This document shows positions 1 through 22,362 of a stretch of DNA of 24,000 nt, piece by piece. Both the position numbers and the translations under genes were made by a program. Source of the DNA: Olsenella uli DSM 7084. GTDB taxonomy: Bacteria; Actinomycetota; Coriobacteriia; Coriobacteriales; Atopobiaceae. Location: assembly GCF_964283195.1 (NCBI RefSeq), contig NZ_CAXYLH010000016.1; one strand, written 5' to 3'. The notes under the pieces are model-generated. The model saw only the letters and a program-made list of their open reading frames with translations. It did not search any database and was not told the origin of the DNA. Positions within the stretch are counted from its first letter, which is position 1, and every line of letters begins with the position of its first letter.

Positions 1-287
1 TGGCGATTGCAAATGTTACCTGGGGGGCGGGCCTCTGGCCCGCCACTGCTATTTACACCACTTTATGGACGTAGCTGTGGTTTTCCCTTTGACGCACGCT
101 TGACGTCGCTTATTTCGCAAAATCGCGCAATTTTGGGCGGGAACTTGCGCCCATGAGGTCATTTTCTATCTCACGACGTTCGATTCAGAATTTCAGCACA
201 TTATTGTGCTTTCGAACGGACGTGAGCAAAAGCGATCATTATTGACCTGCGATTTTGCTCGTCAAATGCTCGTTATTCGGGTTGCGA

Positions 288-355
288 GGCAAAAAAGAAA
301 TCCAGTGGCTTGCAGGTTTACCAGGTGAAAAACCTGTCTAACTGAAGCCACTGGA
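288..355 (-). terminator. Rho-independent terminator; probably the original guaA terminator, now ~20 kb from guaA
   Basis: Outer stem TCCAGTGGCTT (301-311) / AAGCCACTGGA (345-355) and inner helix CAGGTTT (313-319) / AAACCTG (330-336). On the minus strand the hairpin is followed by TTTCTTTTTTG (300-288). It lies 45 nt downstream (minus sense) of the guaA-end mimic at 401-415. Confidence 0.7.
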
Positions 356-400
356 CGAAAAATCAGGCTACTAAATGAACCTTACAATAATGTGCGGATG

Positions 401-415
401 TTATTCCCACTCGAA
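401..415 (-). repeat. guaA 3'-end mimic / att-core copy A (attL-like junction)
   Basis: The minus strand reads TTC GAG TGG GAA TAA (F-E-W-E-stop). It shares TCCCACTCG with the true guaA end (20761-20773) and with copy C (16008-16020). Confidence 0.6.
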
Positions 416-768
416 TAAGCGCGTTTGCTACCACGCCATTCCAGTCCATTCCAGTTGTGTCATCGTTTCTAGTTGCCCTGCCGCCGAATCCCGCCACGTG
501 CCGCCGCGTGGGCGTTTGGGACAAAACGTGGGACAAAACCGAAAACTATTTCGAAACCACGAGCCCGCAGTTTCATTTTTGTCCCGGGGACAAAAACGGG
601 TCGGTTTTGAGGCTTGGAGAAGCCCGAAACGGATGCCAAAACGACTGATTTTCCTCTTTGGCACCTGTTTGGTGATGTGAATCGTAGCCAGCGGCTTTAT
701 TGCTTTGCATTTCCGCAGGTCAAGATGGGTAGGCAACATTTATGACTGGAAGAATCGTCGCAGGCGGC
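416..768. repeat. Conserved noncoding island arm, copy A
   Basis: Aligns block by block with 11147-11490. Shared blocks include the tandem CCATTCCAGT pair (about 445-468), GCCGCCGAATCCC, GGGACAAAA at 518-526 and 530-538 (12-bp phase), and the perfect palindrome TTTTTGTCCCGGGGACAAAAA (576-596). Further shared blocks are GATGCCAAAA, CCTCTTTGGCACCTG..GAATCGTAGCCAGCGGCTTT, GCATTTCCGCAGGTCA and GAAGAATCGTCGCAGGC.GCTT. Indels between the copies break every reading frame. Confidence 0.8.
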
Positions 769-4057: not shown

Positions 4058-7000
4058 CTATGCGTGGCGCCTGGCGAGCATCAACGCGGCAACAACGATG
4101 ATGCCTCCGGCGATTCCCAAACTCGCGACGGTGGTGAGCGTGTGATCGCCCGTGGCGGGGAGCTTGGATGCGGCGCCTGCCGTGGTGGTGACGGTCGCAG
4201 TGGCACTATTGCCGTCGCCGGGACCCGCAGGATTTGGCGTTGGGTCCGGCTCTACGGCGTCAGCGACGTTGAACGTCCACCACCCAAAAACGCTTTCGTA
4301 GTTGCGCGCGTCGCTGGGCGTGTACTGCGCCAAGAAGCGATAGCCACCCGTTGCCGTGAGCGCGGTTTCGGGGGCAACCCAGGTCCAGGTGCCCTTATCG
4401 TCTGCCGGGAGCTGCTGGTCACCGAGCTTGAGGCCGTTGGTGAGCGTCAGGTCGGGAAGCGTTGTCACCTGGGGCGTGGGGACGGCGCGGTAGATGTCGT
4501 AGAGGGCGACGACGCTGCCGGCGGCGTACTCGTCAGTCTCGGCAACCTCGAAGAGCACGGCGTAGTGACCAGCGTTGACGGGGGCAGCGTCCAGCTTGGT
4601 GAAGCCGTCGTCCTCGACCTCGAAATAGGTGAGGGTGCCGCTTGCGGTCAAGGCGGTGTTCGTGGCGCTGTCGCGAACCTCGGTCGTGACGTTCGCCGGC
4701 ATGCCGTCGTAAACCTTGGACGTTGCGTCGACGGTCAGCGCGAGCTCGGGCTTTCCGGGCGTGGGGTCAGGGCTGGGATCGGTGCCGTCGACAACGTTGA
4801 AGCTGAGCATGCGTGCCGTGCGGAGGTAGTTCCGCGTGTCGGTGGGCGTGTAGATGGCGAGTCCGCTCTCAGTGCCGGCACCCGTGATGGCGCGCGAGCC
4901 ATCGGCCCAGCTCCAGGATCCCTTGGGGTCGTCGGGAATGGCCTCGTCCGCGAAGGTCAGGCCGTCGCGCAACTCGAGGTTGCCGAGCTGGGGCGTATCG
5001 GGGTTGGGCGTCGCCCGGTAGATGCTGAACGATGCCGTGACGGGCTCGGCGGTGTAGTTGGCCGGGGTGTCGGCTGAAAGCTCGGCCAGGTAGGTGCCTG
5101 CGTTGGTAGGAGCCTCCTCGAGCTTGGTGAGCACGCCGTCGACGACCTCGTAGTAGGTGAGCGTGCCGAGGTCATTGAGCTCGTTACCCGTTATGGGGTC
5201 AACGACCGACCAGGCGGCAGCGACGGGCGCGCCGTCATAGGTCTTGGACGCCACGTCGAGCGTGAGCGCAAGCGGCGTCACCTCTACCGTAAGCGTGCCG
5301 GGGATCACGGTGATGCCACTCTGGTAATTGACCTCGCCGGCATCCGTCAGCTGTGCGTTTGCGACGGTGATAGCGTCTGCGTATGTGCCTACGGCGAGGT
5401 CGGCGTAGGACGTCACGGCGTTTCCCGTGTCCTGGGAAAGCTTCTGGAAGTCGAGCGCGGCTGCAATCGGCTGGATAACGCTGTCGGCAGCCTCGCCCTC
5501 GACGAGTCCCTCGACCGTAAAGACGTATCCGGGCTCGGTCCCGTGCCAGGTGCCCGTGGCATCGGCTACGCGCAGCGTGGGTGCCGCATGCTTGGCGATG
5601 GTGAACGTGCACGAGGCCTCGTCGGCGAGGTAGTTGTGCGTATCGGTCACGCGGAGCACGGCCTCATAGCTACCTGCGTTCTTGGGCGCAGCAGTGCGAA
5701 GATCCTCGGTGCGCTCGTCGCCATCGCGCAGGTAGTAGTTGACCTCGTATCTGGCGTTAACCTTCTTGCCGGTGGCATTGGTGATATCCACCGCGGCCTC
5801 AACGGGTTTGCCGTCGTAGGTCTTATCCGCAACCGCGATGGTGCCCGTGACCCTAGCCTGCTCGATGGTCAGCGTGCCCGGCACCACCTTGATGTCGGAG
5901 CTGTAGTTGTTGGCACCCTTCTCGCTCAGCTGCGGGTTTGCAACGGTGATGGCATCTTCGTACTTCCCTGCGTCGAGGGCGCTGTAGTCGAGCCCGGAAC
6001 CGAGCGCGGCGGCCGTGCCCTGCACGAAAACGTCCTCGGCTTTGTCGTTGCCGACAAGACCGCTCACCTCAAACGAGTAGGCGGGCTCGGTCTCGCCATA
6101 GACAACACTCGCGTCTGCGACGGTGATGGTGGGCGCCGCAGCCTTGGTGATAGCGAAGTCGCAGCGGGCCTCGCACGCTTTGTAGTTGGTACGGGCAGGT
6201 ACGTTTATGACAACCACATAGCTGCCGGCATCGACGGGCGCCTCACCGAGCGGTTCGAGCTCGCCGTTGTTGTTGCGGTAATAGCTCAGGCTGTAGGTGC
6301 TGTCGAGCTTCTCGCCGGTGTTCGGGTTAGTGATCGAGCAGGTGACCTCGACGGGCGTCCCGTCATAGGTCTTGCCTGTGGCGGCTACGGCGGCCGCAGG
6401 CGTCGCCGGAGAGACGGTGAGCGTGCCCGCATTGACGAAGACGCTGTTCTTATAGTTGGCGCCTGCGCCCTTGTTGAGCTTCGGGTTCTTGACGGTGATG
6501 GCAGACGGATAGACGCCGACATCAAGATCCTGGTAGCCCTTATTGCCCGTGATGCTCTGGTCGAGCTCGGCCTTGGTGTCCCCGGCGAGGACGTCCTTGC
6601 CCTCGTCGGCGTCGGCCAGGCCGGAGACGGTATAGGTGTAGTCGGGCTCGCTGCCGCTCCAGGTGCCTTCGGCGTCACTTACGGTGATGGTGGGGGGCGG
6701 GGCCTGGTCGATCACGAAGCGCGTAGAGGCCTCGCCACCCAGGTATTTATCGGTGCTCTCGACCGTCCATACCACCTCGTAGCCACCGGCAGGGCTGGGG
6801 TTACCCCACCAAGGGTCGTCCCTATCGTCGTTTTTCTTGATCGCGTAGTACTTGAGCCTGCCTGTGACCTCGACAGGCTCGCCGGTCCCGGCATCGACGG
6901 CAGTTGTCGTGACAAGGGAGTCGCTATAGGGGTTGCCGTCGTAGGTCGTGTCCTCAGCCGTAATGCTCAGCTTGAGCCGCTTGCGTTCGGCGGGCTCATT

Positions 7001-7723
7001 CTTATAGACCTCAAATCTGAGGTAGCGGTACACAGTGGCATAGTTGACCGTGTCCTTGGGCGTGAACATGGCGAGTGCGACGACAACATCGGGGCCGTCT
7101 TTGGAGTCGTCACTGGAGTTGTCACTGGAGCCGTCATCGGGGTCGTGGATCTTCTGGTTTGCGACACGCCTTGTCCATGACCAAGTTCCATCCTCGGGGT
7201 TTGTCGCCTCGGTTTGTTCCGGGAAGGGCTCCTCGGAAGCCCTGAGGCCCTCGCGGAACTTGATGGGCTCAAGCGCGGGCGACTCGGGGTTGGGGATGGC
7301 GCGGTAGATGCGCACGTCCTGCGAGACGCTTCCGCCCAGGTAGTTGTCGGTATCGGGCACGGTGTAGGTCACACGGTACGTGCCGGCGTTCACAGGCGCT
7401 TTCTCGAGCGTCTTCTCGCCGGCATTGGTGACCTCAACGTAGGACAGGCTGCCCTTGACATCCACGGTATCGCCCGTCGCGGGGTCGATCGCTTTGCATA
7501 CGGGCTTAAGCTCTTCGCCGTCGTAGATCTTGTTGCTGACGTTGAGAGAGAGCGTGAGCTGCGTCTGGGCACTAAGGCCACGGCATGCCGCTTCGTCCGC
7601 ACGGGCGTTTGTTGGCGGCGTGGCCACAAAGAGTGCTGCCGAGAGCGCCGCGATGGAGCAGAGCATAAGGGACAGTTTTGCCCATGATCTTCGAGGCCTC
7701 GGGGTGGTAAGCAGGCGTTTCAC
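4058..7723 (-). CDS. Cell-wall-anchored (LPXTG) giant adhesin built of MBG-type repeats
   Basis: 1221 aa. GTG start with an AAAGGAG RBS 7 nt upstream. The signal peptide is ...LSLMLCSIAALSAALFVATPPTNARA. Many modules have the ..K.YDG.P......G.L.Y......AP.NAG.Y motif. Three modules begin AAPT(I/L).V.DA.G.W.G.EP.Y.F.V.GL. The C-terminus is LPATG followed by a hydrophobic helix and RRHA. Confidence 0.92.
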   Translation of the reverse strand: MKRLLTTPRPRRSWAKLSLMLCSIAALSAALFVATPPTNARADEAACRGLSAQTQLTLSLNVSNKIYDGEELKPVCKAIDPATGDTVDVKGSLSYVEVTNAGEKTLEKAPVNAGTYRVTYTVPDTDNYLGGSVSQDVRIYRAIPNPESPALEPIKFREGLRASEEPFPEQTEATNPEDGTWSWTRRVANQKIHDPDDGSSDNSSDDSKDGPDVVVALAMFTPKDTVNYATVYRYLRFEVYKNEPAERKRLKLSITAEDTTYDGNPYSDSLVTTTAVDAGTGEPVEVTGRLKYYAIKKNDDRDDPWWGNPSPAGGYEVVWTVESTDKYLGGEASTRFVIDQAPPPTITVSDAEGTWSGSEPDYTYTVSGLADADEGKDVLAGDTKAELDQSITGNKGYQDLDVGVYPSAITVKNPKLNKGAGANYKNSVFVNAGTLTVSPATPAAAVAATGKTYDGTPVEVTCSITNPNTGEKLDSTYSLSYYRNNNGELEPLGEAPVDAGSYVVVINVPARTNYKACEARCDFAITKAAAPTITVADASVVYGETEPAYSFEVSGLVGNDKAEDVFVQGTAAALGSGLDYSALDAGKYEDAITVANPQLSEKGANNYSSDIKVVPGTLTIEQARVTGTIAVADKTYDGKPVEAAVDITNATGKKVNARYEVNYYLRDGDERTEDLRTAAPKNAGSYEAVLRVTDTHNYLADEASCTFTIAKHAAPTLRVADATGTWHGTEPGYVFTVEGLVEGEAADSVIQPIAAALDFQKLSQDTGNAVTSYADLAVGTYADAITVANAQLTDAGEVNYQSGITVIPGTLTVEVTPLALTLDVASKTYDGAPVAAAWSVVDPITGNELNDLGTLTYYEVVDGVLTKLEEAPTNAGTYLAELSADTPANYTAEPVTASFSIYRATPNPDTPQLGNLELRDGLTFADEAIPDDPKGSWSWADGSRAITGAGTESGLAIYTPTDTRNYLRTARMLSFNVVDGTDPSPDPTPGKPELALTVDATSKVYDGMPANVTTEVRDSATNTALTASGTLTYFEVEDDGFTKLDAAPVNAGHYAVLFEVAETDEYAAGSVVALYDIYRAVPTPQVTTLPDLTLTNGLKLGDQQLPADDKGTWTWVAPETALTATGGYRFLAQYTPSDARNYESVFGWWTFNVADAVEPDPTPNPAGPGDGNSATATVTTTAGAASKLPATGDHTLTTVASLGIAGGIIVVAALMLARRHA

Positions 7724-7954: not shown

Positions 7955-8755
7955 CTAGCGGTCGGCCGCCCCTTCGTACCCAAAATACAGCGCAAGGGCG
8001 CGGTCGGCGTCGGGGCTGCTGCGCGTGTAGTTGATGTTTTTGATGTCAAACAGGATGCAGCCGCAATGGCCCGTAATGGTCGGGAAGCAGACGACCTTGA
8101 GGTATGTATCGATCTCGGGGCTGTAATCGATAAGCTCGAGCGTCTCGCCCCAGAGCGCCGCTCGCTCGTAGCAACGGAGCCACTTGGCGTCCATGTTGGG
8201 AAAGATGCTGCCGAACGAGTGGCCGATAAGCCGGTCGAGCGGCACCTTCTCGAGCCGTGCAAGGGCGTCGTTGCCGTATCGAAACACCCAGTCCACCGCC
8301 TGGCGTTGCCCGTCGAGGACCATTTCGATATCGGTAAAGGCAAAGGGCATGTCATCGAAGCTCGCGTAGCGAGCGTGATAGTCCTCGAGGGCGGCGGAGG
8401 CATCTCGCTGCTCGCGGTCTTCGATAACCGACGCGCGCCAGGCTTGCAGCTCCTCGCGGAGCTGGCGCTTGCGTCGCACGGTATATTCGAGGCTCTCGCC
8501 GTTGATGAGGTTGACGGTATCGGTGATGTCGTGGATGGCGCGCGCCGAAACCAGACAGCTGCGATGCACGAGCAAAAAGCCACTGCCTAAGATTTCGCGC
8601 AGCTCACGTAGCGTGACGCGGATATCGTAGAGCTCCCCGTCGATCATATGGACAAACGCATCGTTGCGTTTCATCTGGACGTACAGGACGCGCGTGGCAT
8701 CAAGCACGTAGTCCTTTTTGCCCGATGTGATTGTGACGGCTTTGCTGGCGTGCAT
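7955..8755 (-). CDS. One-component transcriptional regulator: N-terminal LytTR DNA-binding domain plus C-terminal PAS-like sensor
   Basis: I call the start at ATG 8755 (MHASKAVTI...), preceded by GGAGGgtct; the longer 355-aa track ORF has an implausible Arg/Pro-rich N-terminus. LYVQMKRNDAFVHMIDGELYDIRVTLRELREILGSGFLLVHRSCLVSARAI is a LytTR signature. FAFTDIEMVLD....VFRYGNDALARLEKVPLDRLIGHSFGSIFP...YERAALWGETLELIDYSPEIDTYLKVVCFP...GCILFDI is PAS-like. Confidence 0.8.
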   Translation of the reverse strand: MHASKAVTITSGKKDYVLDATRVLYVQMKRNDAFVHMIDGELYDIRVTLRELREILGSGFLLVHRSCLVSARAIHDITDTVNLINGESLEYTVRRKRQLREELQAWRASVIEDREQRDASAALEDYHARYASFDDMPFAFTDIEMVLDGQRQAVDWVFRYGNDALARLEKVPLDRLIGHSFGSIFPNMDAKWLRCYERAALWGETLELIDYSPEIDTYLKVVCFPTITGHCGCILFDIKNINYTRSSPDADRALALYFGYEGAADR

Positions 8756-9080
8756 AGACCCTCCGCGACGCAATGTGCTCTTTCTTCGATTGTAGGCGGA
8801 CGCAGGGTTTCCTTTCGGATTATTCCGTTCAAACCGATGGTTTGCCGTCCTTGTGGCAGGATGCGTAAGGAGCTGGTTGGCGATCGCATGTGCCGGATAA
8901 CGTGCGGGGGCATCGGCGATGGCGTGCGTTGGTCTCGGTCGCTGAGAGCGGCGACCCCTGGGGTTTGCGGATAGGGGCTGATGGGGGCACCATTCAAAAT
9001 GGCGGCAGAAACAACCCGCCACGAGAATGGAATAAAGCTTCGGGTCTCAATAGGAACCCTATTAAGAAAGGCGGGAAGCA

Positions 9081-9471: not shown

Positions 9472-9786
9472 ATGAGACCGAAGGCCGGCAAAACCTACGA
9501 CGGCCCAACCGAGATGGAAGCCCTCGCGACGCTGACTTCCTATAATTTGCCGAGCGTCGAAGAAGTCAAGCAAGGGCTCGAGGGCGGTAAGGCTAACGGC
9601 GTTTTTCAAGGGGAGCGGCTGCAGGCCATAGAGGGTGCAAGGCACGGTTTACTGCACGACGTATATGCCTTCGCGGAAGCATACCCTGAGTACGAGCGAT
9701 ATGGCGATATCCTGGAGCAGCATGGGTTGGAACTCAATGCCGAGCAGAGGCGGGCTCAGCAGCATATGGAAGGCGTCAAAGAATGA
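9472..9786 (+). CDS. Hypothetical protein, translationally coupled to the first SUKH gene
   Basis: 104 aa. Its stop overlaps the next start (ATGA at 9783-9786). The SD (AGGAG) directly abuts the ATG, so the start is doubtful. Confidence 0.4.
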   Translation: MRPKAGKTYDGPTEMEALATLTSYNLPSVEEVKQGLEGGKANGVFQGERLQAIEGARHGLLHDVYAFAEAYPEYERYGDILEQHGLELNAEQRRAQQHMEGVKE

Positions 9787-10199
9787 ACAACGAAATCACT
9801 GCCCTCGCCAGGGACTATGCCAATGACAGCTTTTTCACGAAGGTTCCTGTTACCGACAGCATGATCGAAGCGGCGCAAGGAAAGCTCGGAATCGTACTTC
9901 CCGGTCAATACGTCGATTACCTGAAGACCTTCGGTCATGGTGGAATCGGGGGCGTCGAGATACTCGGCTTCGGGTTCGACGGAAGCGCCATGTTCATCGA
10001 CGACACTCTCGAGTATCGTGAATTCGGACTGCCCAAGAACCTTGTCGTCGTGGAGAACGTAGACGAATGGCTCTACTGCCTCGATTGCGATACGGGAAAA
10101 GTCGTGCCTTGGTGTCAGGGCGAAGAGGTTCGAAGCGCCACCCCCAACTTCGACGAGTTCGTGCTCGACGAGTTCAAAGACGCCATAGACAACATGTAG
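9783..10199 (+). CDS. SMI1/KNR4 (SUKH-1) family immunity-type protein
   Basis: 138 aa. ...IEAAQGKLGIVLPGQYVDYLKTFGHGGIGGVEILGFG...VVVENVDEWLYCLDCDTGKVVPW... is the typical SUKH pattern. Confidence 0.85.
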   Translation: MNNEITALARDYANDSFFTKVPVTDSMIEAAQGKLGIVLPGQYVDYLKTFGHGGIGGVEILGFGFDGSAMFIDDTLEYREFGLPKNLVVVENVDEWLYCLDCDTGKVVPWCQGEEVRSATPNFDEFVLDEFKDAIDNM

Positions 10200-10220
10200 C
10201 GGTGTCGTGACGCATCGTGA

Positions 10221-10258
10221 GGCCGGCTTCCCATGTGAGCCGGCCTTTTCGTTTTATT
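10221..10258 (+). terminator. Rho-independent terminator after the first SUKH gene
   Basis: GGCCGGCT (10221-10228) / AGCCGGCC (10238-10245), followed by TTTTCGTTTTATT. Confidence 0.75.
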
Positions 10259-10476
10259 GACGGCGCGGAAAACGTTTCAGAAACGATCCGATTCTCGATA
10301 GACAGCACAGCGACCTCCGCGGGCAATGTTGGAAATGGCGAGCGAAGCGATCACGGATTGGTCGGAAACGGAGGAAACTTCCGCAACGACCCGATTCTCA
10401 ACAAGCAGTTCAACAATTGTCGAAGCGCGTACCGGAAATGGCGCGCGGACGAATACAAGAGGAAGGGTGGGAAACG

Positions 10477-10899
10477 ATGAACCGGCAAATAGAGGCGCTG
10501 ATCTCGGAGCATGAGCGCGAGGGCGACTTCCTCCACGCCCCGCTCGACGACGACGCGCTGAGGAACGCGGAGTCGGAGCTCGGGGTGGAGCTCCCCGCTC
10601 AGTACGTCGACTTCCTCCGCAGGTACGGCCATGGCGGCATAGGCGGCGTGACGGTGCTCGGCGTCGGGCTCGACGGGTCTATGATCTTCGCGGAGGAGAC
10701 CGAGGAGTACCGTCCCGACGGCCTCCCCGACTGCCTGGTGGCCGTGGAGAGCTGCGACGAGTGGCTGTATTGCATCGACTGCTCCAACGGCAAGGTGGTC
10801 AGCTGGTCGCCCTACGACAACGACGGGGTCATCGAGGCCTACAAGGACTTCGATTCCTACCTCCTCGACAGGCTCAATGACGCCATCGAGAACATGTAG
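10477..10899 (+). CDS. SMI1/KNR4 (SUKH-1) family immunity-type protein, paralog of 9783-10199
   Basis: I call the start at ATG 10477 (MNRQIEALI...) after GGAAGGGTGGG. ...LGVELPAQYVDFLRRYGHGGIGGVTVLGVG...VAVESCDEWLYCIDCSNGKVVSW...DAIENM is collinear with the upstream paralog. Confidence 0.85.
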   Translation: MNRQIEALISEHEREGDFLHAPLDDDALRNAESELGVELPAQYVDFLRRYGHGGIGGVTVLGVGLDGSMIFAEETEEYRPDGLPDCLVAVESCDEWLYCIDCSNGKVVSWSPYDNDGVIEAYKDFDSYLLDRLNDAIENM

Positions 10900-10949: not shown

Positions 10950-10957
10950 CGAGGTTA

Positions 10958-11146
10958 GGGAGTAAAACGACAAAGAAAAAGCCTCCGTCCCAACGCGGGG
11001 ACGGAGGCTCGATTGCCGTGTTTACTCACCGATGCCGCAGGTGGCTTTGCCGTGAGTCGCGTACGAAACGAAACTCAGCGGTACACCACGGCACTCGAAA
11101 GTGCAGGTCAAAGCCCTGTCGGCCCACTCCTACTCCTTCACACTCG
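10958..11146. repeat. Island P-segment copy B plus a scrambled guaA-end core
   Basis: 10958-11122 aligns with 15842-16007 and 20594-20760. All three start at GGGAGTAAAAC and contain the invariant CCGCTGAGTTTCGTTTCGTA (minus sense). The core region 11123-11146 reads CCCACTCCTACTCCTTCACACTCG in place of CTAYTCCCACTCG. Confidence 0.8.
10971..11008 (-). terminator. Rho-independent terminator inside P-segment B
   Basis: GCCTCCGTCCC (10981-10991) / GGGACGGAGGC (10998-11008). On the minus strand it is followed by TTTTTCTTTG (10980-10971). Confidence 0.7.
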
Positions 11147-11490
11147 TTTACCGTGGCGTCATTCCAGTTAACTCCAGTTGGGTCGTCGGTCTTGTCCGTC
11201 TTGCCGCCGAATCCCTCCGCGTGTCCTCACGTAGGCGATTGGGACAAACCCTGGGACAAATCCGCGAACCATTTCGAAACCGCGAGCCGCAGTTTCGTTT
11301 TTGTCCCGGGGACAAAAACGGAAATGTTTTGAGGCGCATAATCACCCGAAGTGGATGCCAAAAGGGCGATTATCCTCTTTGGCACCTGATTGGCGAAGCG
11401 AATCGTAGCCAGCGGCTTTGCCACCTAGCATTTCCGCAGGTCAGATGGGATGCACAAGAGCGATGACTGAAAGAATCGTCGCAGGCAGCT
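11147..11490. repeat. Conserved noncoding island arm, copy B
   Basis: Collinear with 416-768. GGGACAAA occurs at 11241-11248 and 11253-11260, and the identical 21-bp palindrome is at 11298-11318. Confidence 0.8.
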
Positions 11491-11729
11491 TCTTTTGCAA
11501 ATTTGAACGTGGCCTCAATCTGTGACTTGTGAAGTCGCTGTTCCTGTCAGCTGCCCGTTTATCATCGGATTTGCCGTCTTTGATAAGCACACGTTTCTCT
11601 GATATACATTGACGCAGTAAGACAAAACGTAAATTATGTGGCGTTCTCCGCACTTTACGTCTTGTTTTTTAAAAAAGCTGTTAAGCAGTATTTTGACCAG
11701 CTGGCAGCGTTATAGGAGGCGAAACCAAT

Positions 11730-13924: not shown

Positions 13925-13951
13925 GGTTAGACGACTACAAACATGAAAAGA

Positions 13952-14030
13952 ACTCAGAGCCTTTAGTTTTTTGTCCCACGGCACACAGCGGGCAGCCTTT
14001 AGAGGCTCGATATCGACGAAAACGCCCGTT
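13952..14030. repeat. Relic of the distal part of a C-type island arm
   Basis: ACTCAGAG..TTTTTTGTCCCA..GCCTTTAGAGGCTCGATATCGACGAAAACGCCCGTT aligns with 16164-16248 (ACTCAGAG..TTTTTGTCCCA..GCCTTTGGAGGCTCGATATCGCCGAAAAACGCCCGTT). Confidence 0.6.
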
Positions 14031-14119: not shown

Positions 14120-14252
14120 TACAATGCGGGCACCAGAGATGAAAACACAGTCCCCGTCGGGTAGTCGTGGGCGTGCGGGAGTCCGCATCAGTAACCTGCC
14201 TCCTTGGTTGTCCCTTCTCTGCATGGTCATCTACATAAAGAAGGAATCAGCC
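14120..14252 (+). promoter_or_regulatory. yjdF leader: TGcTACAAT promoter plus a ~125-nt structured 5'UTR (candidate yjdF-type riboswitch)
   Basis: The extended -10 is TGCTACAAT (14117-14125). The closing helix is ATGCGGGC (14124-14131) / GTCCGCAT (14181-14188). The pyrimidine tracts CCTGCCTCCTT and TCCCTTCTCT can pair with the SD AAGAAGGA. A second copy of the whole leader lies at 16811-16943. Confidence 0.45.
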
Positions 14253-15547: not shown

Positions 15548-15841
15548 GAACCGCTCGAACGATTGCGCGAGCTAACCCCCCGATTACTCTCTTTTCCCTG
15601 AGATGGCGAGATTCTTTACTCCCCATTAACCACCTGGGAAAACGCCGTACGGAGACCGCCGAAAAGCCCATTGAGTTCGATTTGAGTTTCACGGGCCTCG
15701 AAGCGGCCCCGTCTCGCCCTCGGGGACAAAAACAGCGCGTCCACTCACTCGGGATAAATCCTTACTCCCATTCCCCCGAGTACCACCCCGTGCCTTGCCG
15801 TCTTGAAATGCGGGGAGTAAATGGCGAAATCGCAGGTGAAA

Positions 15842-16020
15842 GGGAGTAAAACGGCAAAGAAAAAGCCTCCGTCCCAACGCGGGGGCGGAGGCTCGGTTGC
15901 CGCATTTACTCACCGATGCCGCTGGTGGCTTTGCCGTGAGTCGCATACGAAACGAAACTCAGCGGTACGCCACGGCACTCAAAAGCGCAGGTCGAAGCCC
16001 TGTCGGCCTATTCCCACTCG
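15842..16020. repeat. Island P-segment copy C plus guaA-end core copy C
   Basis: Aligns with 10958-11146 and 20594-20773. In minus sense the core reads ACC GAG TGG GAA TAG (T-E-W-E-stop) at 16020-16006. Confidence 0.8.
15855..15892 (-). terminator. Rho-independent terminator inside P-segment C
   Basis: GCCTCCGTCCC (15865-15875) / GGGGCGGAGGC (15882-15892, one G-U pair). On the minus strand it is followed by TTTTTCTTTG. Confidence 0.7.
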
Positions 16021-16300
16021 GTGGTTATAGTTTTGCCGTCTCGTCACTCCAGTTGCACCCAGTTTTCGGCGGCATCTCGAAGTGAGTGCCGCTGAATGAC
16101 GCGACGTCGCGTTTCATCGGCTTCGGGGACAAAAGCTGGGACAACTTCAAAAACCATTTTCAAACTCAGAGTATTGAGTTTTTATTTTTGTCCCAAGGGG
16201 CACGGAGAGCCGCCTTTGGAGGCTCGATATCGCCGAAAAACGCCCGTTTTGAAACTCAACCGCCTTTGAGCCTGCAAACCACCAGCTTCAACAGTAAGTG
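16021..16300. repeat. Island arm, divergent copy C
   Basis: It has the same architecture as arms A and B: tandem CACTCCAGTTG/CACCCAGTTT, GGGACAAAA (16126-16134) and GGGACAAC (16138-16145) at 12-bp phase, a hairpin AAACTCA/TGAGTTT, and the half-palindrome TTTTTGTCCC (16185-16194). Confidence 0.65.
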
Positions 16301-16532
16301 AGTCGACGCGGGTGGCTTACGAGCCGTTCACAAAACCGCAGGCCACAGGTCTTTGTCAACGATAAGCAAAGTGAATAGTCTCAGGTGGCTTGCCCATGAG
16401 TTGGCGTAAGCCTGTTTAGCAAAAGGCTAATCGGACACGACAGGCCGCCCGCATGGCGACGGCGTTTCCCGTGCGGGCACAAACAGCCCTGCGTGCCCTG
16501 TCGCGCGATATCCCAATGCGACGTTCAGAACC

Positions 16533-16802
16533 CTACCCGCCAAGCAGCCACCTCGCGAAATTCAGCACGAGCACGCCCTCCCGGGTATGGGGCTCATGCC
16601 TCGTGCGAGTGATGAGAATCTTCGGGAATGCATCCCCGATGGATAGAATCGGCGCAATCTCCCTCTCGAGCGTCGAATCGGCGCCGATATCGTCGCTCAC
16701 ATACACTTTCCTTCCCGGTTTCGAAACTTGGAAGGCAGTATGCGCAAGGATGCGTCGAGGTGCGATCCCAGTCGTACCATGCCAGCAGAGATGTCGAGGC
16801 AC
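16533..16802 (-). pseudogene. 3' fragment of a second AAA+/DUF4143 ATPase gene
   Basis: ...SKPGRKVYVSDDIGADSTLEREIAPILSIGDAFPKILITRTRHEPHTREGVLVLNFARWLL aligns with the C-terminus of the 1205-2458 product (...LGSKRYYIQSAYALPDAAKREQESASLLRIGDSFKKIIIVKD...GIVTMGLFDFLL). The whole ATPase core is missing. Confidence 0.6.
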
Positions 16803-16810
16803 ATTCGTTC

Positions 16811-16957
16811 ATGCTGCAATGCGGGCATCGGAGATGAAAAACAGCCCGTCGGGTAGTCATGGGCGTGCGGGAGCCCGCATCAGTAACCTGCCTCCTCGGT
16901 TGTCCCTTCTTTGCATGGTCGTCTACATAAAGGAGGAACCAGCCATGCAGATCAGCA
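16811..16957 (+). promoter_or_regulatory. Second copy of the yjdF leader plus only the first four yjdF codons (truncated)
   Basis: Near-identical to 14117-14264. TGCTGCAAT is the -10, and the closing helix is ATGCGGGC (16818-16825) / GCCCGCAT. The SD is AAGGAGGA, followed by ATG CAG ATC AGC at 16944. Homology is lost after about 16956. Confidence 0.6.
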
Positions 16958-16974
16958 TGCTTGCCCTTCTTGGG

Positions 16975-17285
16975 TCACGGACCGGGGAGGCGAGGGCCTC
17001 CGTCGGGACCGCCCCGAGCAACCGGCATATCCAAGGAATGACAAGGCTCGATCGCTGTGCTGGTCAGGATGCCGAAGCGGGCCGTCCGCCAATCGGAATG
17101 CGGGTCAGGATGCTGCAACGTGATTCCAGCTGCAGGATACGGCTCCTTTGCGGTTGCCGCAAAACCTGCTGGCAACATTCTTACTATCCGAATGATGTAC
17201 GCATCCCTTGGGATCGTTTCGCCTGACCAGGGCCATCTTCAGCGCCTCATCGGCCAGCTCGGCAGGCGCCTCTTCCACGCGTAAT
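16975..17285 (-). pseudogene. Degraded IS3-family transposase (DDE/rve domain) fragment
   Basis: The minus-strand translation PAELADEALKMALVRRNDPKGCVHHSDS fits the IS3 pattern (..Lv..AL.mAl.rR.p..gliHHSDrGsqY). The downstream frame shifts to ...AAGITLQH...DWRTARFGILTSTAIE, a weak match to GI..SmSr.GncwDNA..Esff..lK.E. It has no start and contains frameshifts. Confidence 0.35.
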
Positions 17286-17368
17286 AGCCCTGGCGGGTCA
17301 CCTATGCAACCAAAGATACAAAAGGAATCGAATGGCCAGAGAGGATTGCCCTTACCGATGCTCGATTC

Positions 17369-17398
17369 TTGACAGGCAAACTCAAGCCTCGTTAATAT
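17369..17398 (+). promoter_or_regulatory. Sigma70-type promoter of the mef/msr operon
   Basis: TTGACA (17369-17374), 17-18 nt spacer, TTAATA/TAATAT (17392-17398). Confidence 0.5.
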
Positions 17399-17438
17399 TA
17401 CATGGTTTGCCAGACCGAATTAACAAAGGAGGGGTGTC

Positions 17439-17509
17439 GTGGTTGGTCTTTTCCGCACGTGGATGAGCGCCTAGAAAGCGGCGCTGTTGTGGCGTCGCGC
17501 TGTTTTTCT
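17439..17509 (+). promoter_or_regulatory. Candidate leader peptide ORF (MVGLFRTWMSA) plus a terminator-like hairpin: putative macrolide-responsive attenuator
   Basis: AAAGGAGG lies 6 nt before the GTG at 17439, and the 11-codon ORF ends with TAG at 17472-17474. Then an imperfect GC-rich hairpin (17477-17501; for example GCGGCGC / GCGTCGC with one G-U pair) is followed by GTTTTTCT (17502-17509), ~30 nt before the mef start. Confidence 0.4.
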
Positions 17510-17537
17510 GCACGCCATTTCACGATTGGACATAACC

Positions 17538-18824
17538 ATGATATTTGAAACCTCTCGGGGCAGGTCTGTTCTGCTGTGCCATTCATGGCAATTCAAGCTT
17601 TGTTTCGTATGGGGCGGGGAGCTCGTTTCGACATTGACGAGTTCGATTCTCCAAATGGGTCTTATTTGGCATCTCGCCCTCACGACAGGGTCGTCTTCTC
17701 TCCTCTCCTTAGCATCGCTGGCAGGCTTTCTGCCGATTGCTTTGTTCGGAATCCTTGCGGGCGCCGTTGTCGACAGACTGCCTTTGAAACGTGTCCTCAT
17801 CGGCGCCGACCTCTTCATTGCCGCGGTGGGTGCCGCCTTGGCGATTGCCTCGTTGGCCGGCAGCTTACCTGCATGGCTAATTCTCATCGCCCTGTTTCTC
17901 CGTGCAGTTGGTACTTCGTTCTACACGCCAGCCTCCCAATCTCTCACGCCCCATCTCGCCCCGCCAGAGCATCTCGTTCGCCTATCGGGGGTGACTCAGG
18001 CGATTCAGTCCGGCGGATACATTCTTGGCGCCGCGCTTGCAGCAGTGATTTATCCCGTGGCGGGCATTACCGCTATGATTGTCCTCGACGTGCTGGGAGC
18101 GCTTTTCGCTTCTTTAGCCGTCCTCGCCGCACAGATAGACGCAGGGGGCCTCGATGAAGCCGACCGCAGCTTGTCCTTTTCCAATAAGGTTCGAGAGCTC
18201 TTCTCTGAGATTTCGGACGGCTACAAGCTGATTAGGGAGTACAGGGGGCTGTTCGCCCTTCTTTGGTGCGGGTTCGTCTTCGCTTTCGCGTTCTCTCCGC
18301 TCGCGGCATTGTTCCCAATAATGACCTTGGGGCATTTTGGCGGTAGCACGGGGGATGCCGCTTTGGTGGAAATCCTTTTTTCTGCAGGCATGCTGGCTGG
18401 GTCCGGCATTTTGGCGGCCACGGGAGGGTTCCGCAATAGGTCGTTCACCATGGTCGCCGCGATTGCCGGCTTCGGCATTGCCGCAATCGTATCCGGATCG
18501 CTCGGCCCGTCATTGTTCGCTGCTTTCCTGCCGGTGAGCTTTCTTATGGGCGCATGCTCCCCGTTGTACGCGGGAACCCAGACTGCCCTTATGCAGGAGC
18601 AGATACCTCCTGAGTACCTAGGCCGCGTTTTCGGCCTCTACGGAACCATCATGGCGTGGGCCATGCCCATGGGCCTCGCAGCCCCCTCCGTTTTTGCGGA
18701 TCTGCTTGGAGCTCCGTTATGGTTCGTCGGCTCTGGAGCGACCATGGTACTGCTTGCGATGGCTATGCTGCTTGCTCCGAGCGTCCGAAACGCGGGGAAA
18801 AGAGATACCGGGCAGATTCAATAG
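17538..18824 (+). CDS. mef: Mef-family MFS macrolide efflux transporter
   Basis: Collinear with Mef(A) as I remember it: W..K..FVWGGELVSTLTSSILQMGLIWHLALTTGSSSLLSLASLAGFLPIALFG..AGAVVDRLPLKRVLIGADL...EYLGRVFGLYGTIMAWAMPMGL. Start codon uncertain (ATG 17538, weak RBS). Confidence 0.85.
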   Translation: MIFETSRGRSVLLCHSWQFKLCFVWGGELVSTLTSSILQMGLIWHLALTTGSSSLLSLASLAGFLPIALFGILAGAVVDRLPLKRVLIGADLFIAAVGAALAIASLAGSLPAWLILIALFLRAVGTSFYTPASQSLTPHLAPPEHLVRLSGVTQAIQSGGYILGAALAAVIYPVAGITAMIVLDVLGALFASLAVLAAQIDAGGLDEADRSLSFSNKVRELFSEISDGYKLIREYRGLFALLWCGFVFAFAFSPLAALFPIMTLGHFGGSTGDAALVEILFSAGMLAGSGILAATGGFRNRSFTMVAAIAGFGIAAIVSGSLGPSLFAAFLPVSFLMGACSPLYAGTQTALMQEQIPPEYLGRVFGLYGTIMAWAMPMGLAAPSVFADLLGAPLWFVGSGATMVLLAMAMLLAPSVRNAGKRDTGQIQ

Positions 18825-19085
18825 CCCAAGTATTCGAAAAAAAGAGGCAGCAGCCATCGGTTCAAGCGTCAGCCTTCAAGCCCTTGCGACGACGAGGTAT
18901 TGCACCGACATTCCGCATCGCGCTCCTTATTCGTCGCCAACTATCATTTTCGGATTTGCCGGCTTGCGCAAGGTCAAAACGCTCGCGCCGGCAATTGGGC
19001 AAAGGCGAAAAATCGACGTGAGCAATCTTTTTTGGCATGGCTGCGCTTCCAGTAAAACGCTAATACACAAAAGGCGGTTCAACCT

Positions 19086-20555
19086 ATGGAACTCATAGTC
19101 AAAGCTAAAGACATCTTTTTGGAATATGCCGGCCGCGATATCCTAGATATCGAAGAGTTGGAAATCTACTCCTACGATCGCATCGGCTTGGTGGGAGACA
19201 ATGGCGCAGGCAAAACCAGCCTGCTTAAAATTCTGAGCGGCAATCTTACCATTGCGGACGCCGACGTCAGGCGCTTCGGCAGCATTGCCCTCATCGGCCA
19301 ACTCGATGAACTCGACCTTGATGCGGCTCAGGACAGTGGTGAGATGCTCTCCCGTCTCAACGTCGCCGGAGTGGCGCAGGAGACGATGAGCGGCGGGGAG
19401 GAAACACGCGCCAAGATTGCCTCTGCACTCTCCCAGCATGCAAGCGCGATCTTCGCCGACGAGCCTACGAGCCACCTCGACCAAGACGGCATCCGCCTTC
19501 TCGTCGGACAACTCAAGGCATTTGATGGGGCTCTGCTCATCGTGAGCCATGACCGTCATTTTCTCGACCAGGTGGTAGACAAGATCTGGGAGCTCAAAGA
19601 CGGCGGTATTTCCGAATTCTGGGGTGACTACTCCGACTATCTGCGACAGAAAGAAGAAGAGCGCAAAGCTCAGGCGACTCGATACGAAGAGGCGATGCGC
19701 GAGCGCGATCGCCTCGAAGCCGCCATCGAAAAACAACGGAAAAAAGCACGGCAGGTCGACGCCAAGCGGAAGGCTGCGAAAAAAAGCAACGAGTATGCAG
19801 GTCGATTGGGGCATCAGAAAGCAACCGGCACCAAACAGAAGAGGATGTACCAGGCGGCTAAGGACATGGAGAAGCGCCTCGAAGCGCTCGAAGGGATTGA
19901 GGCCCCAGATAGCATTCGCGCCGTGCGGTTCCGCCAGAGCAAGGCCCTGGAACTGCATAGTAAATTTCCCATCTCGGCAGACGATTTCAGCTTGAGCTTC
20001 GGCAACTGCATGCTCTATGACCACGCGAAATTCGAGATACCGCTCGGTGCCAAAGTGGCCATCACCGGTGGCAACGGTACAGGAAAGACCAGCCTGCTGA
20101 AGGCAATCGCTCGACGCGCCGACGGTATCAACATCTCTCCCAAGGCAGAGATCGGTTACTTCGAGCAAACAGGCTACAAGTTCGACGCCCGTCAGTCTGC
20201 GATCTCGTTCATGCAGGATGGTTGCGAGTACAGCATGACCGAAATTCGAGGCATCCTCGCCTCTATGGGAATCGGACCGCGCGACCTGACAAAGGACGTT
20301 GGCGTTCTCTCGGGAGGCGAAGTCATCAAGCTGCTACTCGCGAAGATGCTGCTGGGCAGATACAACATCTTGCTCATGGACGAGCCTGGAAATTACCTGG
20401 ACATCAAGAGCGCCGAAGCCCTCGAGCAGATGATGAGCGCCTATGCCGGAACGATAGTGTTCGTCTCCCACGATAAGAGGCTGGTCGAGAACGTCGCAGA
20501 CATTGTCTACGAAATAAAGGACACCAAGCTAGTCAAAATCTTTCAGCGCGAATAG
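19086..20555 (+). CDS. msrD: ABC-F ribosomal protection protein of the Msr(D)/Mel type
   Basis: 489 aa with two ABC cassettes ([20 protein letters not shown] twice) and a basic interdomain linker. It is collinear end to end with Msr(D): MELI.KAKDI......[23 protein letters not shown]...[25 protein letters not shown]...YNIL.MDEP.N.LD...[10 protein letters not shown]. Confidence 0.9.
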
Positions 20556-20593
20556 CCCTAAATGAGCAAGAAATAATCCCCGAACGGAGACAA

Positions 20594-20773
20594 GGGAGTA
20601 AAACGGCAAAGAAAGAGCCTCCGTCCCAACGCAGGGAACGGAGGCTCTTTAATCGCTTTTACTCATCTCCGTCGCTGGTGGCTTTGTCATGACTCTCGTA
20701 CGAAACGAAACTCAGCGGCACAGTGCGGCACTCAAAATCGCAGGTCAGAACCCTATCGGCCTACTCCCACTCG
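20594..20773. repeat. Island P-segment copy D plus the true guaA end (attR-like junction); it now forms the guaA 3'UTR
   Basis: Aligns with 10958-11146 and 15842-16020. It starts at GGGAGTAAAAC (20594-20604) and ends in CTACTCCCACTCG (20761-20773), which is the stop plus E-W-E codons of guaA. Confidence 0.8.
20607..20645 (-). terminator. Rho-independent terminator currently serving guaA
   Basis: GCCTCCGTCCC (20617-20627) / GGGAACGGAGGC (20634-20645, one bulged A). On the minus strand it is followed by TCTTTCTTTG. Confidence 0.7.
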
Positions 20774-22362
20774 ATCGTCGCGGGCGGCTTGGACGTGATG
20801 TCATAGCACACGCGGTTTGCACCGGGGACCTCGGCGACAATGCGGCCGGAGATGCGGGCGAGCACGTCGTAGGGGATCTTTGCCCAGTCGGCGGTCATGG
20901 CGTCGGAGCTCTCGACCGCGCGTAGGATGATCGGGCGCTGGTAGGTGCGCTCGTCGCCCATAACTCCCACGGACTTGATGTCGGGCAGCACGGCGAAGTA
21001 CTGCCAGCACGAGTGCTCGGAGTTCCTCTCGCCGGTCTTCTCGAAGAGGCGCTGGTTGTAGGCGTCGAGCTCCTCGCGCACGATGGCGTCGGCGTTCTTC
21101 AGGATCTCGAGCTTCTCTTTGTCCACCGCGCCGATGATGCGGATGGCCAGGCCCGGGCCCGGGAACGGCTGGCGGTACACGATGTGCGCGGGCAGGCCGA
21201 GCGCGAGGCCGAGCTCGCGGACCTCGTCCTTAAAAAAGTGGTCGAGCGGCTCGATGAGGTCGAAGCTCACGCCCTCGGGGAACGGGATCAGGTTGTGGTG
21301 GCTCTTGATGGTGCTCGCCTTGCCGCCCGTCTTGCGCGCGCCGGACTCGATGATGTCGGGGTAGATGGTGCCCTGGGCGAGGTACTTGACGGGCTTGCCG
21401 TCGGTCTCGAGCTGCTGGGCGACCGCGAAGAACTCCTTCCAGAACTGCGTGCCGATGATGCGGCGCTTCTGCTCCGGCTCGGTCACGCCGGCCAGGAGCT
21501 CAGCGTAGCGGTCCTCGGCGTGGACGTGGATGAAGTCGACGTCGAACTGCTTGGTGAAGACCTCCTCGACCTGCTCGGGCTCGTTTTTGCGCAGCAGGCC
21601 GTGGTTGATGAAGACGCAGGTCATCTGCTTGCCGATGGCGCGGGCGCCGAGCGCGGCCACGACGGAGGAGTCGACGCCGCCGGAAAGCGCGAGGATCACG
21701 CGGTTGTCGCCGACCTTCTCGCGGAACTGCTGGGTCATGGTCTCGACGAGGTTGTCCATGGACCAGTTCTTCTCGAGCTTGCAGATATCAAAGAGGAAGT
21801 TCGAGAGGATCTGCTGGCCATACTCGGTGTGCTTGACCTCGGGATGGAACTGGGTGGTGTAGATCTTGCGCTCGGGGTTCTCCATCGCGGCGACGGGGCA
21901 GACCTTGGTGCGCGCGGTCACCTTGAAGCCCTCGGGCACGTCGCAGACGGCGTCGAAGTGGCTCATCCACACGGTCTGCTTCATCGGCGTGTTGTTGAAC
22001 AGCGCGCTGCCGGCCTCGCGCTCGAGCTCGGCGTGGCCGTACTCGCCGACCTCGGGATGGAAGACCTTGCCGCCCAGCGTGACAGCCGTGATCTGGTGGC
22101 CGTAGCAGAAGCCGAGCACGGGGACGCCCAGCTCGTAGATGCCGGGGTCGACGCGCGGGGCCTCGGGGTCGTTGACGGAGGCGGGGCCGCCCGAGAGGAT
22201 GAGCGCCGCCGGCTTCATGGCCGCGAGCTCGTCGGCGGGAATGTCGCACGGGACGATCTCCGAGTAGACGTTGAGGTCGCGCACGCGGCGCGCGATCAGC
22301 TGCCCGTACTGGGCGCCAAAGTCGAGAACGGCGACGAACTGCTTGGGCTGTGCCTCGGTCAT
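20761..22362 (-). CDS. guaA: GMP synthase (glutamine-hydrolysing)
   Basis: 533 aa. It has the N-terminal GATase-1 domain (LDFGAQYGQLIARRVR..., GFCYGHQ), the ATP-PPase motif LALSGGVDSSV, and the C-terminal dimerisation domain ending ...KPPATIEWE. ATG with a GGAGG RBS. Confidence 0.97.
   Translation of the reverse strand: MTEAQPKQFVAVLDFGAQYGQLIARRVRDLNVYSEIVPCDIPADELAAMKPAALILSGGPASVNDPEAPRVDPGIYELGVPVLGFCYGHQITAVTLGGKVFHPEVGEYGHAELEREAGSALFNNTPMKQTVWMSHFDAVCDVPEGFKVTARTKVCPVAAMENPERKIYTTQFHPEVKHTEYGQQILSNFLFDICKLEKNWSMDNLVETMTQQFREKVGDNRVILALSGGVDSSVVAALGARAIGKQMTCVFINHGLLRKNEPEQVEEVFTKQFDVDFIHVHAEDRYAELLAGVTEPEQKRRIIGTQFWKEFFAVAQQLETDGKPVKYLAQGTIYPDIIESGARKTGGKASTIKSHHNLIPFPEGVSFDLIEPLDHFFKDEVRELGLALGLPAHIVYRQPFPGPGLAIRIIGAVDKEKLEILKNADAIVREELDAYNQRLFEKTGERNSEHSCWQYFAVLPDIKSVGVMGDERTYQRPIILRAVESSDAMTADWAKIPYDVLARISGRIVAEVPGANRVCYDITSKPPATIEWE

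Follow-up and report, generated by a model that had tools for sequence, protein, structure and literature searches.

What purpose can three long noncoding repeats serve in a genome region that encodes no protein to use them? The question is raised by a 24,000-nucleotide stretch of Olsenella uli DSM 7084 (contig NZ_CAXYLH010000016.1; hereafter the window), in which three segments, arms A, B and C, carry phased copies of the sites GGGACAAAA and GGGACAAA together with a hairpin and a palindrome or part of one. A preliminary description of the window had read them as arm-type recombinase or recombination directionality factor (RDF) sites, iterons or an origin of transfer (oriT). We propose that each arm is probably the P arm of an attachment site attP (here present as attR) of integrative elements of Coriobacteriia that are specific for guaA, and that it has been retained by decayed islands resembling cis-mobilizable elements (CIMEs). 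This reading is favoured because guaA, a short recombination core and a repeat termed D1 sit exactly at the arm edges, and because the switching of flanks is exact at the core.

Stacked islands at the guaA end

The integration target is guaA (GMP synthase, with the Pfam domains GATase and GMP_synt_C), located at 20761–22362 on the minus strand. The GuaA protein ends in ...IEWE, the final codons being CTACTCCCACTCGAT on the plus strand, and the core TTCCCACTC, the target of a tyrosine integrase, is the reverse complement of GAGTGGGAA, which encodes ..EWE of GuaA and is followed by TAA on the minus strand. The authentic guaA end is found at 20764–20772 (CTCCCACTC). The core recurs at 404–412, on the outer edge of arm A, and at 16011–16019, at the boundary of islands 2 and 3 and the edge of arm C, while a degenerate copy with two mismatches (CTCCTACTC) lies beside arm B at the boundary of islands 1 and 2 (11127–11135). 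The earlier statement that the arms adjoin a recombination core is thereby borne out.

Across each core from the arm lies D1, a repeat of 179 bp with a minus-strand terminator inside. Its first copy (10957–11135) is the P' arm of island 1 and contains the minus-strand terminator hairpin at 10980–11009 as well as GGGAGTAAA and GTGAGT motifs. The P' arm of island 2 extends over 15577–16019 and includes the second copy (15841–16019), a GGGGACAAAAA sequence at 15722–15732 and a cluster of GGGAGTAAA-type sites. The third copy (20594–20772), the P' arm of island 3, is positioned directly 3' of guaA, overlaps its last four codons and provides the guaA end and terminator. Beyond arm A, a terminator-like hairpin on the minus strand (288–355; CCAGTGGCTT...AAGCCACTGG and then a T run) is probably the displaced original guaA terminator.

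Starting from guaA, the layout is thus guaA–core–D1–cargo3–armC–core–D1–cargo2–armB–core–D1–cargo1–armA–core–flank. It reads as the trace of repeated site-specific integration at the guaA end by elements with an attP composed of the arm (P), the core and D1 (P'). A Pfam search of the window proteins identified no recombinase in any of the three islands, and tblastn with the proteins of relatives detected no Int, Xis, HTH_3 or NikA-like remnant in the window. Islands 1 and 2, both of which have att ends, are likewise devoid of Int, Xis or relaxase remnants.

Island 2 has a more complicated history. A truncated C-type arm remnant is present within it at 13950–14022 on the plus strand (repeat family D8), directly upstream of the first of two riboswitches. 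It reads AACTCAGAG...TTTTTGTCCC...CGAAAA and is without core, tandem repeat and the two direct sites. This internal remnant marks an old junction and shows island 2 to be the product of two older islands that fused, with one core, one copy of D1 and half of an arm lost in the process.

Architecture of the arms

The GGGACAAA sequence occurs 12 times in the window, compared with an expected 0.74 ± 0.89 copies, and none of 100 shuffles attains 12. Ten of the 12 copies are held by arms A, B and C. The remaining two are at 13970, in the truncated arm copy, and at 15723, in the opposite arm of island 2.

All three arms, A (island 1, 416–770), B (island 2, 11147–11491) and C (island 3, 16021–16391), are on the plus strand and follow the same order when read away from the core. 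A pair of TCCAGTT-type repeats, offset by 10 bp, comes first at +25 to +45 (436–456 in A, 11160–11179 in B and 16045–16064 in C) and is followed by a GC-rich segment with TGCCGCCGAAT. Two GGGACAAA sites with a spacing of 12 bp then occupy +100 to +125 as direct pairs at 518/530, 11241/11253 and 16126/16138. These are GGGACAAAA at 518–526 and 530–538 in arm A, GGGACAAA at 11241–11248 and 11253–11260 in arm B, and GGGACAAAA at 16126–16134 with GGGACAAC at 16138–16145 in arm C, where the second site retains the 7-mer alone. A hairpin or inverted repeat (553–574, 11276–11296 and 16162–16181) precedes the inverted site TTTTTGTCCC at +165 to +185. In arms A and B this site is a full palindrome of 21 bp, TTTTTGTCCCGGGGACAAAAA, with 10 bp arms and one central base (576–596 and 11298–11318); arm C retains just TTTTTGTCCC (16185–16194). 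Outermost are two 19-mers, exactly 73 bp apart and common to all arms: GAATCGTAGCCAGCGGCTT (679–697) and GAATCGTCGCAGGCGGCTT (752–770) in A, 11400–11418 and 11473–11491 in B, and GAGTCGACGCGGGTGGCTT (16300–16318) and GAATAGTCTCAGGTGGCTT (16373–16391) in C. They start with GTGA(A/G)T, which recalls the GTGAGT motifs present in P', and GGGACAAAA differs from the P' motif GGGAGTAAA at the two central bases alone (GGGAnnAAA).

Arms A and B are collinear, with 73–90% identity (repeat families D2, D3 and D9). Arm C is a diverged homologue of them and extends to at least 16391, since the 19-mer pair with its 73 bp spacing is shared with both. The site pairs, the TCCAGT(T) tandem, the hairpin and the palindrome were all recovered where the preliminary description had placed them. 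Its view that arm C has the same architecture with a different sequence holds for the architecture; the sequence is that of a diverged homologue and not of a mere analogue, and the arm is longer than the end at 16300 given for it. The proposal that structure rather than sequence is conserved in the hairpin is not supported: the outer stem (G/C)AAAC...GTTT(C/T) is homologous across arm types, and the few stem changes within a family are single transitions and not compensatory.

Homologous arms across the Coriobacteriia

Genomes, one per species, were scanned with the pattern GGGACAA-N5-GGGACAA-N30-50-TTTGTCCC. The 120 contigs listed contain at least about 115 homologous arms, which belong to Collinsella, Atopobium, Olsenella, Raoultibacter, Eggerthellaceae and one Arcanobacterium. 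A BLAST search of arm A against phages and plasmids gave no match. An alignment of 14 A/B-type arms displays four different left flanks, with the switch point exactly at the core, and a sharp inner edge at ...GGCGGCTT or ...GAATCGTCGCAGGCGGCTT, beyond which unrelated cargo follows. In the arm of contig L015, exactly one 12 bp repeat unit is lost and the palindrome is mutated.

The arms are not protein-coding, because the 14 aligned sequences contain several independent 1-nt indels and diversity is flat over the three codon positions in both long frames (0.125/0.136/0.147 and 0.143/0.124/0.154). No conserved open reading frame (ORF) was found among the homologues, and the noncoding status claimed at the outset stands.

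Relatives that encode an integrase

The exact GuaA protein of the window is present on ten gut-metagenome contigs, each of which has quite different islands behind the gene, with secondary cores and several arm types. A/B-type arms are carried by integrase-less islands in L015 and L016. In L018, L019, L022 and L024, D1 is the guaA-proximal end of an integrase-bearing element with the gene order HTH_3 repressor, 67-residue HTH_17-like protein (the layout of Tn916 Xis), 356-residue integrase and NikA-like protein. The integrase (Int356) consists of the domains Arm-DNA-bind_4, Phage_int_SAM_3 and Phage_integrase. L022 additionally encodes ParA, ParB, a second NikA-like protein and a relaxase. Searches of PDB sequences with Int356, its N-terminal 78 residues and the 67-residue Xis retrieved catalytic-domain relatives only.

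A metagenome scan with the L022 relaxase recovered L174, on which relaxase, ABC-F and MFS genes, arm C and the core follow one another with no intervening att site. L174 is 95% identical to L022 over 6.8 kb and 96.7% identical to positions 16008–20593 of the window. Arm C therefore closes the far side of a mobilizable element that encodes Int, Xis and a relaxase. Island 3 is a deletion derivative of this element from which everything between D1 and the ABC-F gene has been removed, the right 4.6 kb of L022/L174 being joined directly to D1. It is att-flanked, has no recombination or transfer genes and derives by deletion from a mobilizable element, as expected for a CIME. That no protein encoded beside the arms in the window accounts for them, as had been noted before, remains correct; genes for the presumably cognate Int, Xis and relaxase are carried by close relatives elsewhere.

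The region 15577–16020 of the window (444 bp; 446 bp aligned) is 87% identical to the P' region of Int356 elements, the same type as the parent of island 3. The 4.75 kb island-3 unit (core–armC...D1–core) is found with 98–100% identity in many genomes from several genera. It also occurs where GuaA is just 76–90% identical to that of the window, and its position is either next to guaA or deeper in the array. The right ends of L156-type Int356/relaxase elements lie beyond the 21 kb loci examined, and the GGGACAA pair noted in those loci falls within a sortase-like gene.

A threefold repeat of GGCTATCA in L018 and L025, which could pass for an alternative arm and would then have paired one integrase with unrelated arms, is the end of an IS30-family insertion (HTH_38 and a weak rve domain, low GC) and was dropped as evidence. 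This insertion (L018 14723–16384 and L025 11690–13340) is located at a guaA-type core and, in L018, beside a tet(W)/tet(M)-family gene.

P' motifs that change with the recombination module

The P' arm of Int356-type elements contains six to seven copies of GGGAGTAAA in about 630 bp and one GGGGACAAAAA. All six Int356-type P' regions have one GGGACAA and six to seven GGAGTAA, whereas all eight P' regions of an integrase variant with 73% identity have no GGGACAA and seven to eight GGAATAA (GGGAATAAT). The Xis of this variant is 75–81% identical, and the element's version of the guaA end switches in step (TGGGAGTAG versus TGGGAATAA). As both GGGACAA and the P' motif are replaced when the Int/Xis variant changes, the att motifs appear to follow the recombination module. 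Other arm types at the hotspot have their own direct-repeat pair at the same distance from the core, and the pair in the L021 arm resembles that element's own P' motif.

The P' motif also mimics the stop-codon region of the element's own guaA end, GGGAGTAAA going with TGGGAGTAG and GGGAATAAT with TGGGAATAA (window 15577–16019, L019 11591–12220 and L156 1635–2207). In the form GGGAGTAAAT it resembles AGTAAAT, the probable DR-2 core of Tn916.

Candidate proteins for binding the sites

In the model that we propose, the arm would act as a scaffold of putative protein sites that folds the DNA such that an integrase bound to the arm also reaches the core. The GGGACAAAA sites would be occupied in trans by the arm-binding domain of the integrase or by the Xis of Int356-type elements. 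By retaining these sites, an integrase-less island could, in the presence of a related element, still undergo excision or integration or travel with it.

The integrase arm-binding domain (Int-N) is the leading candidate for the predicted binder, with something short of an even chance. In its favour are the presence of sites in both arms and in both orientations, the adjacent pairs at the usual distance from the core and the likeness to the P' motif. Xis is a less probable candidate, favoured by the position of the sites between the core and the distal 19-mers, by the phased direct pair and by related half-sites upstream of parA; their location 79 bp from that gene would suit an excisionase that also regulates transcription. 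Another element-encoded protein is the least probable of the three, although still a serious contender. The HTH_3 repressor is unlikely in this role, as its own divergent promoter uses CGTAC repeats.

Several points weigh against a P arm served by Int356-type proteins. The multi-copy motif of P' is GGGAGTAAA and not GGGACAAAA (GGGACAA has three to four copies in the P arm and a single one in P'), and the integrase arm domain may therefore prefer GGGAGTAAA. The GGACAAA half-sites 79 bp upstream of parA in relaxase elements fit a regulator as well as a recombination protein. No A/B-type arm was found on any integrase-bearing element recovered, and the link to Int356 runs through homology to arm C and through the D1 partners. 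The flank beyond arm A (window 1–404) is absent from about 230 loci, among which no empty guaA-flank target site was recovered. Finally, the sites are kept among the 120 genome loci, as the preliminary description would have them, yet the finding is partly circular because the site pattern itself served to retrieve these loci; in arms reached independently of it, the sites are retained with at most one or two changes.

More tentative is the suggestion, which we consider possible but doubtful, that the module D1–core–arm (about 0.55–0.8 kb) might be a portable lambda-type attP, through which recombinase-less cargo would be captured, stacked, swapped and passed from one species to another at guaA by Int and Xis of resident mobilizable elements acting in trans. 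The sharp inner arm edge followed by unrelated cargo, and the occurrence in several genera of a mef/msr-type unit with 98–100% identity and no integrase, agree with this suggestion without proving it.

Alternative explanations

Other functions for the arms are weighed here in falling order of probability, and even the one placed at the head is unlikely. According to this explanation the arm is a replication origin in which GGGACAAA copies are iterons for a primase-helicase acting in trans or a Rep protein, such that excised islands replicate in the manner of satellites. The arrangement of direct repeats, a hairpin or AT-rich centre and inverted 7–9-mer repeats does resemble phage and satellite origin arrays (e.g. 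the ori of Staphylococcus aureus pathogenicity islands, SaPI). The same 7-mer GGGACAA is found in at least nine distinct IMG/VR contigs, where direct sites, a hairpin and then inverted sites form arrays immediately 3' of primase-helicase genes of the VapE-like or AAA_25/PriCT type. Such an array is 5–14 times more common than three composition-matched control patterns (14 matches versus 1, 3 and 1), and AAA_25 genes are present in other guaA elements (L021 and L031). Nevertheless, the arms have three to four sites, two of them direct, compared with 7–16 per viral locus. No initiator, Rep or primase-helicase gene is encoded in the window or in the parent L022/L174, which disfavours the iteron reading, and the AAA_25 element L021 has a different repeat (three copies of TTGCCGTCA). 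The arms are tied to the att core at single-base precision, whereas the viral arrays share no similarity with them beyond the 7-mer and have no integrase nearby; we treat these contigs as an analogy only and not as relatives. A slightly smaller chance is given to the sites serving a regulator or partition protein of the parent (ParB or another) as operators or centromere-like sequences, with an incidental presence in the arm. In every relaxase element examined, the half-sites TTGTC-G-GACAAA and TTTTGTCCC precede parA by 79 bp, and the perfect palindrome of arms A and B suits a dimeric binding protein. On the other hand, the spacing of half-sites differs between the palindrome, the parA site and the 12 bp pair, which fits monomeric modules better than a fixed dimer. 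A separate 11 bp inverted repeat at the parA promoter (GTACCACGAAA...TTTCGTGGTAC) is a better operator or parS candidate, and integrase-less islands without parAB retain the sites. A partition or regulatory function is possible as a second role.

Lower still we place an oriT within the arm, with the hairpin and flanking sites bound by a NikA-like ribbon–helix–helix protein and nicked by a relaxase, which would render the islands mobilizable. In all integrase-bearing relatives int is indeed followed by a NikA-like gene, another such gene lies ahead of the relaxase, and the arm hairpin followed by a conserved tract is oriT-like. It is argued against by the parent element's own inverted repeat just upstream of nikA2-relaxase, the usual and here the likely place of an oriT, to which a sequence in L021 is related (CAGCAAGTAGCCTATG...). 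This upstream region is lost from island 3, which retains its arm, and no nic-site consensus was recognised in the arm. Thus, among the readings offered by the preliminary description, arm-type or RDF sites are favoured by their context, while iterons and oriT are weakened. Transcription of the arm into a structured noncoding RNA or a cis-regulatory leader or terminator is very improbable. A plus-strand T run follows the hairpin, and the stem variants of C-type arms are transitions that would preserve G–U pairs on the plus strand; yet no arm has an Rfam match, either at the gathering threshold or at E ≤ 1, the folding z-scores of the two strands are −0.8 and −0.9, promoter and terminator counts are at shuffle level and the hairpin contains no compensatory double changes. 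The arm as a decayed or unannotated protein-coding gene, for which stop-free runs of about 100–130 codons in two frames could be adduced, has next to no probability: besides the indels and the equal diversity at the three codon positions, the translations are of low complexity and rich in arginine, and this explanation can be considered effectively refuted.

A number of related sequences were encountered in the course of this comparison. Arrays of 7–16 GGGACA(A/G) sites that flank a hairpin, direct on one side and inverted on the other, are present in L001–L014 (IMG/VR) and in L097, L101, L103, L139 and L144 (genomes). Their hosts are unrelated, with a GC content from 28% to 69%, and the arrays are often 3' of VapE-like or AAA_25/PriCT genes. 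In L021 (12200–12270), three tandem TTGCCGTCA copies and a GC-rich hairpin directly after the AAA_25 gene form an iteron-like array distinct from GGGACAA. At the parA promoter (L022 15790–15860, and the same place in L156, L157, L174, L183, L194 and L215), GGACAAA-type half-sites TTGTCGGACAAA...TTTTGTCCC are found next to CGTAC repeats and the GTACCACGAAA/TTTCGTGGTAC pair.

Cargo of the islands

Arm A is adjoined by an ORF of 118 residues without a family match (769–1125), the stop codon of which overlaps the arm end. It recurs beside A-type arms in L070, L121, L128 and L142, being intact in L142 (82% identity) and frameshifted in the others. Further into island 1, a protein of 1221 residues with MBG domains (4058–7723) contains internal repeats of about 550–580 bp (families D4, D6 and D10) and is adjoined by a LytTR-domain regulator (7955–9022). 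Two small ORFs without a family match precede two tandem SUKH/SMI1-KNR4 immunity-type genes with similar 3' ends (9783–10899; family D7), an arrangement that resembles polyimmunity cargo.

Two azaaromatic (yjdF) riboswitch aptamers score above the gathering score of 45, at 14129–14231 (59.9 bits) and 16824–16923 (48.4 bits). The former precedes a DUF2992 (YjdF-type) gene. The latter is followed by just a stub starting MQIS and then by mef/msr-type genes, which suggests that the resistance genes entered a yjdF unit under riboswitch control. The resistance genes, in island 3 (17487–20555), are a pair of the macrolide-resistance type and code for an MFS transporter resembling Mef and an ABC-F protein of the Msr family (672 bits versus a cutoff of 680). 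The assembly collection lists this exact ABC-F protein in 19,852 blocks, and the pair is also found between insertion sequence copies (Transposase_mut) in L027 and L030.

Three puzzling repeats can in this way be turned into a readable map of a guaA integration hotspot of a Collinsella-type gut bacterium with stacked integrase-less islands, the cargo of which comprises genes for macrolide resistance, surface proteins, immunity and defence. For locating the boundaries of islands in gut Coriobacteriia the arm offers a convenient marker, as one pattern search retrieved at least 115 copies. If the arms are indeed still used by integrases in trans, this would explain how a resistance unit without a recombinase spreads between species.

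Comparison with known systems

Elements already known to integrate into the guaA 3' end are Tn5801, ATE-1 of Trueperella pyogenes and GIsul2 (PMC4844618, PMC5704250). Tn5801-type elements combine a tyrosine integrase, a short direct-repeat core that restores the guaA end (11 bp in Tn5801), a Tn916-family Xis and antibiotic-resistance cargo (PMC4844618, PMC5704250). The elements described here resemble them in the target gene end, the short core restoring it, the resistance cargo and, in the relatives, the tyrosine recombinase and Tn916-type Xis. They differ in their Coriobacteriia host and in the lack of an integrase in the window elements, and the likeness is one of target, layout and cargo. 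We found no description of the arms or the GGGACAAAA sites for Tn5801-type elements or elsewhere in the literature searched.

CIMEs, integrase-less att-flanked derivatives that accrete in stacks with related elements, are exemplified in Streptococcus thermophilus by those at fda that are related to ICESt1/ICESt3; when related integrative and conjugative elements (ICEs) or integrative and mobilizable elements (IMEs) move, CIMEs can be mobilised along with them (PMC5704250). The islands of the window share with CIMEs the att flanks, the loss of recombination and transfer genes and the tandem position at one gene end beside related ICEs or IMEs. Here, at least three units are stacked, the identity of the 4.75 kb unit between species and genera is 98–100%, and a long P arm of 350–380 bp forms the conserved part. 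The mechanism, att arms and accretion of CIMEs, is already established in other bacteria, and these arms are most likely ordinary mobile-element machinery, tidy and widespread.

The attP arms of lambda-type systems (P1/P2, X1/X2, F and H) and the ends of Tn916 (DR-2 for Int-N, and Xis sites) consist of phased repeats to which the arm domain of the integrase, the excisionase and bending proteins attach. The arms of the window are similar in being noncoding, within the range of 150–400 bp, next to a short core and provided with site pairs spaced by about a helical turn. Their site sequences are different, and the sites are predicted ones in the present case. To our knowledge, a perfect half-site palindrome is unusual for arm-type or Xis sites.

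The attC site of integrons is a folded single-strand site of 57–141 nt that is used by IntI. Membership of the arms among attC cassettes was rejected, as there is no attC-like symmetry and both the integrase family and the layout are different: the arms form a double-strand lambda-type attP, with an arm of 350–380 bp, for a phage/Tn916-type integrase with an arm-binding domain. What is shared with integron cassettes is recombinase-less cargo that carries a recombination site alone and is arrayed at one chromosomal site. By analogy, and as tentatively as the portable attP itself, the islands might represent a double-strand, arm-dependent counterpart of an integron cassette array throughout gut Coriobacteriia, in which the GGGACAAAA sites would be the handle for trans-acting proteins.

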